NCBI RefSeq assembly: GCF_013315695.1
Contig: NZ_CP054353.1
Origin: Escherichia coli
Lineage (GTDB): Bacteria > Pseudomonadota > Gammaproteobacteria > Enterobacterales > Enterobacteriaceae
Length of the DNA stretch: 64,000 nucleotides
Strand: one strand, 5' to 3'
Of the stretch, positions 13,858-64,000 are shown piece by piece (position 1 is the first letter of the stretch; each line of letters opens with the position of its first letter). Under the pieces are notes generated by a model. That model made no database searches. It saw only the letters and a program-made list of their open reading frames with translations, and had not been told where the DNA came from. The position numbers were made by a program, and so were the translations under genes.

Positions 13858-14148
13858 CTAAGCAGCATGTGGATATTGAATTTCAATACGTTGAATATGC
13901 AATCCTGCATGAGCCATCATGGTGATCAATTTATCGATACTAAAGATCTGGATCTTACCTCTGGCAAGTTCAGATATGCGAGGTTGAGTGACCCCTAAAG
14001 CAGACGCTGCCTGAGCCTGGCTAAACCCTTGTTGTTCAATCCAGTTATTAATGATCGTTACAAGTTCGGCACGGATCCGCATATTTTCCGCTTGTTCAGG
14101 GGTGTCACTCACCGCATCCCACACACTATCAAAGGTTTCAATTTTCAT
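13858..14148 (-). CDS. XRE-family helix-turn-helix protein, putative antitoxin (HigA-like)
   Basis: ORF track 13858..14166; probable start is ATG 14148 (MKIETFDSVWDAV...) with AGGAGCGG RBS. HTH-like segment QAQAASALGVTQPRISELARGK. Overlaps the 3' end of the upstream toxin-like gene. Confidence 0.7.
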   Translation of the reverse strand: MKIETFDSVWDAVSDTPEQAENMRIRAELVTIINNWIEQQGFSQAQAASALGVTQPRISELARGKIQIFSIDKLITMMAHAGLHIQRIEIQYPHAA

Positions 14149-14475
14149 TTTTCCGCTCCTGAACAAGTTCTTTATAGCGTCGTTTGTCTAAATCAATATC
14201 CGATTGACTGGTAGTCTGTGTTTTCTTTTGAAAACAATGCAATACGTAAACCGCTTCTTCAAATTTTGCGATATACATGACGCGATAGATCCCATCAGCA
14301 TCGCGAGTACGAATCTCTCGCACACCAGGGCCGATAGTTGAAAAGGTTTCCAGTCGTATGGGTTTAACCCTTGTTGGATCCTGTCGAGTTGATAGCCAAT
14401 TTCCTGTCGAGACGATTCTGGAAATGCGCGTAAATCGTCAAGACTGGTATCAAGAAAAGCCAGCTTTTTTCTCAT
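14138..14475 (-). pseudogene. Gp49/HigB-like (RelE-fold) toxin gene, apparently frameshifted
   Basis: N-terminal part (MRKKLAFLDTSLDDLRAFPESSRQEIGYQLDRIQQGLNPYDWKPF) is in one frame; the rest (TIGPGVREIRTRDADGIYRVMYIAKFEEAVYVLHCFQKKTQ...) is in the -1 frame. The switch is at a T4/C2 homopolymer site near 14341-14346. Confidence 0.65.
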
Positions 14476-31061: not shown

Positions 31062-31162
31062 CAGTTGCATAATCAACCGGATTAATTCTTCGGTAAATAA
31101 CGACAAAAACAAAATTGGCCGTTTCGGTCAGGGCCAACTATTGCCTGAAAAAGGGTAAAGAC

Positions 31163-62197: not shown

Positions 62198-62244
62198 TTT
62201 CTTATTCCTCTTTAAACCTGTCTGAACCGTTATCAACCGCGCAA

Positions 62245-62280
62245 TAAAAAAGCCCCCGGAAGGTGATCTTCCGGGGGCTT
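62245..62280 (-). terminator. his operon attenuator terminator (leader region)
   Basis: On the minus strand: GCCCCCGGAAGATCACCTTCCGGGGGC hairpin followed by TTTTTT, between hisL and hisG. Confidence 0.8.
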
Positions 62281-62342
62281 TCTCATGCGTTCATGCACCA
62301 CTGGAAGATCTGAATGTCTTCCAGCACACATCGCCTGAAAGA

Positions 62343-62393
62343 CTAGTCAGGATGATGGTGATGATGGTGGTGTTTAAATTGAACGCGTGTCAT
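62343..62393 (-). CDS. hisL: his operon leader peptide (MTRVQFKHHHHHHHPD)
   Basis: Minus-strand ATG at 62393; 16 codons including seven consecutive His codons, then TAG. Confidence 0.9.
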   Translation of the reverse strand: MTRVQFKHHHHHHHPD

Positions 62394-62642
62394 AAAAGTC
62401 TCTGTGAATGTTTATTCAACTGATGTCTTTTAACCTAAACCACTTTCACGTTAGAAAGCAAGGGCTTTTTTATATATTTTATGGCGATAGATTTGTTTAA
62501 TGAATGAGCGGGGAAAGAAGGGGGCTAAGAGGACTGTCCTCTAACTTGACAGCACCAAAAAGAGCAAAGTCTGATTTTTCGTCTCGCTGACAATGTCTTG
62601 ATCTACAAACTAATTAATAAATAGTTAATTAACACCCATCAT

Positions 62643-62660
62643 TGTACAATGAACTGTACA
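62643..62660 (+). promoter_or_regulatory. yefM-yoeB operator: palindromic TGTACA repeats
   Basis: TGTACAATGAACTGTACA just upstream of the AGAGGAG RBS of yefM. Confidence 0.6.
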
Positions 62661-62675
62661 AAAGAGGAGATTGAC

Positions 62676-62927
62676 ATGCGTACAATTAGCTACAGCGAAG
62701 CGCGTCAGAATTTGTCGGCAACAATGATGAAAGCCGTTGAAGATCATGCCCCGATCCTCATTACTCGTCAGAATGGAGAGGCTTGTGTTCTGATGTCACT
62801 CGAAGAATACAACTCGCTGGAAGAGACGGCTTATCTACTGCGTTCCCCCGCTAACGCCCGGAGATTGATGGACTCAATCGATAGCCTGAAATCAGGCAAA
62901 GGAACGGAAAAGGACATTATTGAGTGA
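62676..62927 (+). CDS. yefM: Type II antitoxin YefM
   Basis: ORF track starts at 62649; trimmed to [64 protein letters not shown]..., 83 aa. Confidence 0.93.
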
Positions 62928-63178
62928 AACTAATCTGGTCTGAGGAATCATGGGATGATTATCTGTACTGGCAGGAAACAGATAAGCGAATTGTTAAAAA
63001 GATCAATGAACTTATCAAAGATACCCGCAGAACACCATTTGAAGGTAAGGGGAAACCAGAACCCCTGAAACATAATTTGTCAGGTTTCTGGTCCCGACGC
63101 ATTACAGAGGATCACCGTCTGGTATACGCGGTTACTGATGATTCACTGCTCATTGCAGCATGTCGTTATCATTATTGA
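62924..63178 (+). CDS. yoeB: Type II toxin YoeB (RelE-fold mRNA interferase)
   Basis: 84-aa [36 protein letters not shown]..., overlapping the yefM stop. Confidence 0.93.
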
Positions 63179-63260
63179 AGAGATTCATTCATAGAATGAA
63201 TTGTCAGTTTTGATACGCTAGCGTAGCCTTATAGATCTAAGGTGTATCAGGAGATAACGG

Positions 63261-64000
63261 ATGAAAAAGGTCGCAATTGTCGGGTTAGGGTGGTTAGGCA
63301 TGCCGCTGGCGATGTCACTTTCAGCGCGAGGCTGGCAAGTCACCGGGAGTAAAACCACACAAGATGGTGTCGAAGCGGCCCGAATGAGTGGCATTGACAG
63401 CTATCTGCTTCGCATGGAGCCTGAGTTAGTTTGCGATTCTGACGATCTGGATGCCCTGATGGATGCCGATGCGCTGGTCATTACGCTTCCGGCACGTCGT
63501 AGCGGCCCCGGCGATGAGTTCTATTTACAAGCGGTACAAGAGTTAGTGGATAGCGCGCTGGCCCATCGTATTCCCCGAATTATTTTTACCAGCTCAACGT
63601 CTGTCTATGGCGACGCGCAAGGCACGGTGAAAGAAACCACCCCGCGTAATCCGGTAACCAACAGTGGACGAGTATTAGAAGAACTCGAAGACTGGCTGCA
63701 CAATTTACCCGGTACTTCGGTCGATATTCTGCGTCTTGCGGGTCTTGTCGGACCGGGACGTCATCCCGGACGCTTCTTTGCCGGAAAAACCGCCCCTGAT
63801 GGTGAACATGGTGTTAATTTAGTCCATTTAGAAGATGTTATTGGCGCTATCACTCTGTTGTTACAGGCACCTAAAGGCGGACACATCTATAATATATGTG
63901 CGCCAGCTCACCCTGCGCGTAATGTTTTCTATCCGCAGATGGCCCGTTTACTGGGGCTGCAACCTCCGCAGTTCAGAAATAGTCTGGACAGCGGCAAAGG
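63261..64000 (+). CDS. yeeZ: NAD-dependent epimerase/dehydratase family protein YeeZ, N-terminal part; runs off the window end
   Basis: ATG at 63261 after GGAGATAACGG RBS; MKKVAIVGLGWLGMPLAMSLSARGWQVTGSK... (Rossmann fold). No stop before the window end. Confidence 0.8.
   Translation, partial: MKKVAIVGLGWLGMPLAMSLSARGWQVTGSKTTQDGVEAARMSGIDSYLLRMEPELVCDSDDLDALMDADALVITLPARRSGPGDEFYLQAVQELVDSALAHRIPRIIFTSSTSVYGDAQGTVKETTPRNPVTNSGRVLEELEDWLHNLPGTSVDILRLAGLVGPGRHPGRFFAGKTAPDGEHGVNLVHLEDVIGAITLLLQAPKGGHIYNICAPAHPARNVFYPQMARLLGLQPPQFRNSLDSGK

Follow-up and report, generated by a model that had tools for sequence, protein, structure and literature searches.

The yefM-yoeB Toxin-Antitoxin Operon between hisL and yeeZ in Escherichia coli: An Intact Accessory Cassette with a Natural Asp63 Allele of YoeB

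The pair of small genes that lies beside the histidine leader in the window (the whole stretch of E. coli DNA analyzed, 64 kb in length) is, with high confidence, the chromosomal yefM-yoeB type II toxin-antitoxin (TA) operon of this species, intact and at the position it normally occupies, between hisL and yeeZ. The window runs from mdtA through the colanic-acid cluster, the O1 O-antigen cluster, and the his operon to yeeZ. The yefM-yoeB system is already known and is a model type II TA system; it is among the best characterized of its class, and the published work on it extends to crystal structures, complexes with the ribosome, a footprinted operator, and activation that depends on Lon. No evidence contradicting the identification was found in the course of the analysis. 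The genes and their divergent neighbor are placed as follows.

62343-62393, minus strand: hisL, leader peptide gene, the divergent neighbor
62676-62927, plus strand: yefM, antitoxin and autorepressor, 83 amino acids plus stop (ATG at 62676, TGA at 62925-62927)
62924-63178, plus strand: yoeB, ribosome-dependent mRNA interferase toxin, 84 amino acids (GTG at 62924, TGA at 63176-63178)

Gene lengths of 83 and 84 amino acids and an overlap of 4 bp had been proposed from the sequence alone (hereafter, the original prediction), and all three can be read directly in the DNA, where the overlap is the tetranucleotide GTGA at 62924-62927. Both open reading frames (ORFs) are free of frameshifts and internal stops, the defects against which the prediction was to be checked. 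The arrangement is that of a type II TA module: two small co-oriented genes, antitoxin first, overlapping, and served by one upstream promoter (62622-62650). Twenty-two independently assembled complete E. coli genomes match the window at 100% identity over an 859-bp segment containing the module (62403-63261), and a sequencing artefact is therefore of no concern. On DNA identical to this segment, for example in strains CU532-9 and MSB1_4I, RefSeq labels the genes yefM and yoeB.

Both products are recognized by family models well above their cut-offs. YefM matches Pfam PF02604 at 96.8 bits (cut-off 29.8, E = 6e-28) and the NCBIfam equivalog NF008499 at 186.6 bits (cut-off 121), and YoeB matches Pfam PF06769 at 144.6 bits (cut-off 27, E = 9e-43) and the equivalog TIGR02116 at 131.2 bits (cut-off 51.8). 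In alignment with the crystallized K-12 complex, YefM is identical to PDB 2A6Q chain A at 83 of 83 residues and YoeB to chain E at 83 of 84 (98.8%), the sole mismatch being E63D; residues E46, R59, R65, H83, and Y84 of the translated toxin ORF are all retained. These matches, together with the K-12 gene order, bear out the proposal of a yefM-yoeB type II module.

That the two ORFs might instead be the remains of a decayed module, or have come together by chance, gained not one supporting point, and we give this reading practically no credence. Both ORFs are full length, their products are 100% and 98.8% identical to crystallized proteins, the operator, promoter, and ribosome-binding site (RBS) are intact, and the same sequence recurs in 22 independent complete genomes; the intact ORFs and the protein identity refute it.

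The intact operon corresponds to that of K-12 in nearly every respect (b2017/b4539; PDB 2A6Q, 2A6R, 2A6S, 4V8X, 6OTR, 6OXA, and 6OXI). It occupies the same hisL-yeeZ locus, and the K-12 gene order yeeZ, yoeB (b4539), yefM (b2017), hisL, hisG matches that of the window. Gene lengths, the 4-bp overlap, the GTG start of yoeB, and the 282 bp between the start codons of hisL and yefM are the same in both, and YefM, both parts of the operator, the -10 and -35 boxes, and the RBS are identical. At the DNA level, 62403-63261 is 96.7% identical between the window and K-12-derived strains; the differences comprise Glu63 (GAG) in K-12 YoeB, two single-nucleotide differences in the promoter spacer, and a few synonymous and upstream-leader changes. 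The alignment to K-12 for which the original prediction called thus returned the same layout, an identical antitoxin, and a toxin that differs by E63D only.

The control elements of the operon are listed below. The promoter, pyy, was placed from its published description, and the hairpin downstream of yoeB was located by a repeat search and folding.

62622-62627, plus strand: -35 box TAGTTA of pyy (the yefM-yoeB promoter), matching the published box, with a 17-bp linker
62639-62652: L (long) operator palindrome TCATTGTACAATGA, perfect over 14 bp and overlapping the -10 box; the primary YefM binding site in K-12
62645-62650, plus strand: -10 box TACAAT of pyy
62655-62660: S (short) operator repeat with a TGTACA core, spanning the transcription start
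62656, plus strand: transcription start G of pyy, placed from the published K-12 description, with the yefM ATG at +21
62664-62669, plus strand: RBS GAGGAG for yefM, 6 nt 5' of the ATG
62910-62914, plus strand: AAGGA, putative RBS through which translation of yoeB would be coupled, in the 3' end of yefM and 9 nt before the GTG
63183-63201, plus strand: 8-bp hairpin ATTCATTC-ATA-GAATGAAT followed by TGTCAGTTTTG, starting 5 nt past the yoeB stop

In K-12, YefM and the YefM-YoeB complex have been footprinted on the L palindrome and the S repeat, which lie 12 bp apart center to center, and the transcription start has been mapped, putting the yefM ATG at +21 (Kedzierska et al., PMC1802561). The published pyy promoter consists of a -35 box 5'-TaGttA-3', a 17-bp linker, a -10 box 5'-TAcAAT-3', and a start G; L lies over the -10 box and S over the start site, such that bound repressor shuts out RNA polymerase (PMC7730913). 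Every one of these elements is identical in the window: L, S, their 12-bp spacing, both promoter boxes, the linker length, and the start G. The two spacer differences noted above (A for G at 62634 and C for T at 62636) are the only departures from K-12 in the control region. At the level of the sequence, then, the operon has the promoter-overlapping operator by which it would be predicted to repress itself. A scan for consensus promoters did not call pyy, whose -35 box matches the consensus at only 3 of 6 positions; the weakness of this box accounts for the omission.

The original prediction described the operator as an inverted TGTACA repeat preceding the RBS. The position is right; the wording needs amendment, because TGTACA is self-complementary and the element therefore comprises two copies of a palindromic hexamer, at 62643-62648 and 62655-62660, separated by a 6-bp spacer and 12 bp apart center to center. 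The 64-kb window contains the combination TGTACA-N6-TGTACA a single time, and none of 100 dinucleotide-preserving shuffles contains it.

A permissive Rfam search of 62200-63400 returned the His leader (His_leader, 62244-62367, minus strand, 131.6 bits) and sub-threshold noise, with no antisense or small RNA families in the module. Beyond yoeB, a 56-nt segment that includes the hairpin (63170-63225) folds at -13.2 kcal/mol (z = -2.35). The hairpin is part of the conserved flank rather than of the inserted DNA described below, and it is kept in genomes that lack the TA genes. It was not called by the terminator scan owing to its AT-rich stem; it may possibly act as a weak terminator.

From the K-12 literature we can propose how the operon would work. 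A weak sigma-70 promoter would give a single bicistronic mRNA beginning at G 62656, from which yefM would be translated by way of its strong RBS and yoeB from the GTG that overlaps the yefM stop, with the AAGGA 9 nt upstream suggesting translational coupling. Because of this overlapping start, toxin synthesis would be coupled to antitoxin synthesis and probably kept below it. A YefM dimer is expected to bind one YoeB and close its active site, leaving an inert YefM2-YoeB complex. YefM alone, and more avidly YefM2-YoeB, would bind the L and then the S palindrome; since the two sites lie across the -10 box and the start of transcription, RNA polymerase would be excluded and the operon autorepressed. 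Degradation of YefM would free YoeB, which would then bind the A site of the 70S ribosome and cleave mRNA after the second nucleotide of the codon. In K-12, YefM neutralizes the toxin and is Lon-labile, its Lon-dependent loss having been demonstrated both upon overproduction of Lon and at 42 C (PMC7167474). In YoeB, Glu46 serves as the general base and His83 as the general acid, and Arg65 and Tyr84 stabilize the transition state (PMC3814384, PMC6821326). Given 98.8% identity to the characterized protein, the toxin of the window would be expected to carry out ribosome-dependent mRNA cleavage and to inhibit growth, and YefM to neutralize this Asp63 form; we infer that the Asp63 allele and the two spacer differences at 62634 and 62636 leave the behavior of the operon like that of K-12.

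The more distant relatives of the operon include RelBE and Phd-Doc. YoeB shares with RelE the microbial RNase fold and the cleavage of mRNA in the A site, and gives weak matches to TIGR02385 and PF05016, whereas RelB is a ribbon-helix-helix antitoxin, unlike the Phd-like YefM. YefM in turn belongs to the Phd/YefM antitoxin family (PF02604, TIGR01552), but the Phd partner Doc is a kinase, unlike the RNase YoeB. A Glu-His catalytic pair like that of RNases T1 and Sa (PMC3814384) further sets YoeB apart from RelBE and Phd-Doc. Axe-Txe of the Enterococcus faecium plasmid pRUM has homologous proteins, paired TGTACA sequences 12 bp apart, and an identical -10 box, TACAAT; its operator, however, occupies the promoter spacer together with part of the -10 box, and repression is weaker and acts at a later step (PMC7730913). 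The Axe-Txe -35 box is also stronger, and its proteins are only distantly similar to YefM and YoeB.

The one amino acid difference from K-12 falls at a residue that contacts the substrate.

63110-63112, plus strand: codon 63 of yoeB, GAT (Asp); GAG in K-12 and GAA in E. whittamii (both Glu)

In structures of YoeB on the 70S ribosome, Glu63 and His83 sandwich the third A-site nucleotide when it is adenine, and this stacking is lost when the third position is U (PMC3814384, PMC6821326). The texts searched describe Glu63 solely as a stacking contact and assign it no catalytic role, and no experiments on variants at this position were found in either PMC3814384 or PMC6821326. Among 130 homologues at least 81% identical, 127 have Glu at position 63, and the window protein is alone in having Asp. 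As K-12 and E. whittamii both use Glu codons (GAG and GAA, respectively), Asp63 is the derived state, and it is a minority allele at a substrate-contacting residue. The Glu63 associated with the YoeB/Txe family is thus lacking in the window toxin. Among 150 diverse representatives (of clusters at 50% identity), however, the residues found at position 63 include Glu (98 sequences), Lys (12), Thr (10), Ser (9), Ala (8), and Asp (5); with Glu in only 98 of the 150, it is a common feature of the family rather than a defining one. Two of the five Asp63 representatives (P0165 and P0210) retain both the E46/R65/H83/Y84 set and the D-H-R motif.

The exact Asp63 protein occurs, with yefM intact, on at least 1,000 public contigs, and megablast finds exact matches to a 59-mer containing the GAT codon in no fewer than 59 complete genomes of E. 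coli from varied hosts, with no CFT073-labeled record among these 59 exact matches. The megablast search returned 3,402 matches, against 4,211 genomes that carry the module, and so missed about 800 of them, probably through other single-nucleotide differences that break its 28-base word; the frequency of Asp63 obtained from it is accordingly inexact.

The exchange could have attenuated YoeB or altered its specificity, leaving this lineage with a milder toxin. The Asp side chain is one methylene shorter than Glu, which could weaken purine stacking, cut cleavage efficiency, or shift codon preference; the residue contacts the third A-site base (PMC3814384, PMC6821326); and a derived minority allele stands where 127 of 130 close homologues have Glu. 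Yet E63D is conservative and retains the carboxylate, and Glu63 is not strictly required, to judge from its presence in 98 of 150 diverse representatives and from the five with Asp, two of which have the catalytic set intact. The persistence of the Asp63 protein on at least 1,000 contigs, and of its codon in the 59 complete genomes, speaks for tolerance of the change, but such persistence fits neutrality and attenuation alike. On balance we consider attenuation or altered specificity unlikely. A disabling effect of E63D was likewise downgraded, since Asp and other residues occupy position 63 in homologues with intact catalytic sets; because Asp is natural in distant YoeB homologues, the substitution is probably tolerated.

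Comparison with other genomes showed that the operon is carried on a discrete cassette, the edges of which were set by alignment with E. coli O157:H7 OK1, E. coli O7:H4 MIN14, E. albertii, and E. whittamii.

62532-63181, plus strand: yefM-yoeB cassette, 650 bp, with a GC content of 0.43 against 0.49 for the window; its right edge is 3 nt past the yoeB stop

With presence defined as a match to at least 80% of segment 62403-63261, the cassette occurs in 4,211 of 5,426 complete E. coli genomes (78%), the flanks being matched in 5,416 of the 5,426. The module is therefore an accessory cassette and not part of the core genome. About 1,200 E. coli genomes, including those of O157:H7, have between the same junctions a filler of approximately 215 bp that is unrelated to the cassette and carries a REP/BIME-like pair (GCCGGATGCGGCGTGAATGCCTTATC...); in O157:H7 OK1 and O7:H4 MIN14, for example, about 425 bp separate hisL from yeeZ, with no annotated TA genes in between. 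When species-representative genomes were scanned with the hisL sequence, the hisL-yeeZ spacer was found in the following states.

160-175 bp, carrying neither of the two inserts: genera outside Escherichia (Salmonella arizonae and diarizonae, Citrobacter, Enterobacter, Leclercia, Lelliottia, and others)
approximately 425 bp, with the REP filler: E. albertii and two other Escherichia species
approximately 866 bp, with yefM-yoeB: E. whittamii

On the simplest reading, the filler allele is the older one in Escherichia, the TA cassette replaced it once, and the cassette has since been spread or lost through recombination in the flanks.

Relatives of the module are also found on large plasmids, of IncF type and others, including an IncFIB/IncFII plasmid of Citrobacter sp. 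TSA-1 (between traT and traD), pEM148 of E. marmotae, and Salmonella plasmids. These copies are 82-86% identical to the window in DNA from the promoter (62612) through the yoeB stop, but their flanks differ on both sides, and the similarity does not extend into the leftmost 80 bp of the chromosomal copy's cassette (62532-62611). The two examined, from Citrobacter TSA-1 and pEM148, have genes of 252 and 255 bp, the 4-bp overlap, the GTG start, and Glu63. The Citrobacter plasmid preserves the L palindrome exactly, whereas pEM148 keeps only the TGTACA core and its two flanking bases; in each of them the S repeat is retained with a single mismatch. The plasmid relatives, the lower GC content, and the patchy presence are in line with a mobile origin for the cassette. 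The simplest interpretation is that a plasmid addiction module has become fixed at one chromosomal site in most E. coli, though not in all.

The distribution of the cassette also bears on the significance of its neighbor. The divergence of the module from the his leader is as the original prediction had it, with hisL on the minus strand and yefM-yoeB on the plus strand. A further reading would make this placement functional, with pyy transcription or YefM binding coupled to the his promoter and the TA system thereby linked to histidine supply. The start codons are indeed only 282 bp apart and the promoters are back to back. However, the same his leader and promoter region is present, with no TA module, in about 1,200 E. 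coli genomes as well as in E. albertii and other Escherichia; in Salmonella, Citrobacter, and Enterobacter, hisL and yeeZ are separated by only 160-175 bp; the left edge of the cassette (62532) falls outside the conserved his-proximal segment; and close relatives of yefM-yoeB reside in unrelated plasmid contexts. Since the same region is found in cassette-free genomes, the his control region works without the cassette, and because it is unchanged there, coupling to his regulation was rejected. We regard a functional link to histidine supply, for instance by way of supercoiling or shared upstream elements, as very improbable.

The physiological role of chromosomal yefM-yoeB is debated. The operon had no fitness effect at 42 C (PMC7167474), and its deletion from CFT073 caused a defect in bladder colonization in competitive infection only (PMC3464220).

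The original prediction also counted three TA loci in the window, and all three are present. Those other than yefM-yoeB are as follows.

532-674 and 861-1009, minus strand: two SIB_RNA copies (Rfam; 149.5 and 141.7 bits, respectively)
13858-14166, minus strand: HTH_37 antitoxin, intact, partner of the Gp49/HigB-like toxin
14138-14475, minus strand: Gp49/HigB-like toxin between asmA and yegH, split by a frameshift into two frames and labeled "frameshifted" by RefSeq

The first had been described as an ibs/sib pair. It is present, although in two tandem copies rather than one pair: ibsA and a second Ibs-family toxin are annotated opposite the Sib RNAs in a genome identical to the window over the 24-kb and 859-bp segments compared, and the locus comprises two type I modules in tandem. 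The HigB-like pair is decayed, as had been proposed, with a frameshifted toxin beside an intact HTH_37 antitoxin; most listed copies of the locus measure 745 nt and that of the window 744, consistent with a 1-bp deletion. The description of the window as largely core genome holds in part, but it must be qualified for the O1 O-antigen cluster, for yefM-yoeB (in 78% of genomes), and for the HigB-like pair, which occurs in approximately 790-910 of the 5,426 complete E. coli genomes (about 15-17%).

The locus matters little beyond correct annotation. Modest by-products of the analysis are the precise boundaries of the 650-bp cassette and of the REP-filler allele that takes its place between the same junctions, and the hisL-yeeZ spacer provides a clean three-state marker (160-175, approximately 425, and approximately 866 bp). 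The plasmid relatives fit the view of chromosomal TA modules as domesticated or selfish addiction cassettes. The main item of note is the natural E63D variant at a substrate-contacting residue. There is a slight chance that the Asp63 allele, which this O1 lineage shares with no fewer than 59 complete genomes, is a natural variant of altered specificity or lowered activity; if so, the lineage would offer a ready-made test of the contribution of Glu63 to ribosome-dependent cleavage.

The spacer between hisL and yeeZ exists in two alternative states bounded by the same junctions, containing either the yefM-yoeB cassette (window 62532-63181) or an unrelated filler of about 215 bp that includes REP/BIME sequence. 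Either allele is flanked by ...GCTAAGAG at one end and by GATTCATTCATAG... at the other. The filler allele lies at about 1130-1345 of the comparison locus from E. coli O157:H7 OK1 (L003), and is also found in the loci of MIN14 (L004) and E. albertii (L008). Among complete E. coli genomes, approximately 78% carry the cassette and 22% the filler; outside Escherichia neither is present, and the hisL-yeeZ spacer is 160-175 bp long. Just beyond the toxin gene, a further element was identified:

Window 63183-63201: hairpin with an AT-rich 8-bp stem that begins 5 nt past the yoeB stop and leads into a T-rich run

This hairpin is kept whether or not a genome carries the cassette, and is partly retained in Salmonella and Citrobacter. 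It may be a terminator or, alternatively, a piece of the yeeZ control region.

In E. coli EC0026B_R4, an isolate of laboratory origin, the spacer contains an insertion of IS421 (IS4-like; L005 2791-3902) with a frameshifted transposase, at the usual place of the cassette or filler. The neighboring hisL gene of O157:H7 OK1 (L003 941-991) has CAG where the histidine run would begin with CAC, which leaves six consecutive His codons in the leader peptide rather than seven; its RefSeq protein accession differs from that of the peptide of the window and K-12. The chromosomal cassette was also found, at 97-99% identity, on three records listed as E. coli plasmids (CP061244.1, CP088875.1, and NZ_OL790696.1), of 0.39, 1.4, and 4.8 Mb, which look like chromosomal sequence wrongly labelled.

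The original prediction also named an ibs/sib pair and a decayed HigB-like pair in the window. Both loci are present:

532-674 and 861-1009, minus strand: Sib antitoxin RNAs in two tandem copies, scoring 141.7 and 149.5 bits against Rfam RF00113
13858-14475, minus strand: accessory Gp49/HigB-like toxin and HTH_37 antitoxin, between asmA and yegH

Opposite the Sib RNAs, the annotation of a genome that matches the window exactly over the compared segments has ibsA and an Ibs-family toxin; the first locus therefore comprises two type I modules and not a single pair. The HigB-like toxin is indeed frameshifted in the window (744 nt, versus 745 nt for the majority of the other copies listed). Of the complete E. 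coli genomes, only about 15-17% carry this pair; O157:H7 has it and lacks yefM-yoeB.

Other features mapped in the window, using in part the annotation of E. coli MSB1_4I (NZ_LR898874.1), are as follows:

About 6968-10298, minus strand: dgcE (mapped from NZ_LR898874.1 3270849-3274179)
16575-16613 and 40853-40891, plus strand: two JUMPstart elements (Rfam, gathering threshold)
31109-31158, plus strand: algC RNA motif (Rfam, gathering threshold)

In MSB1_4I, which is identical to the window wherever segments were compared, the diguanylate cyclase gene dgcE is annotated as a frameshifted pseudogene. Mapping from this annotation places the JUMPstart elements ahead of the colanic-acid cluster (wza) and the O-antigen cluster (rfb); the algC motif maps directly upstream of cpsG.

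Within the toxin itself, codon 63 of yoeB is GAT (window 63110-63112), so that Asp replaces Glu63, the residue which, together with His83, stacks on the third A-site nucleotide. The GAT allele is in the minority, with 59 exact matches to a 59-mer yoeB probe among complete E. coli genomes, and a few distant YoeB homologues also have Asp at this position. The Asp63 allele is derived.
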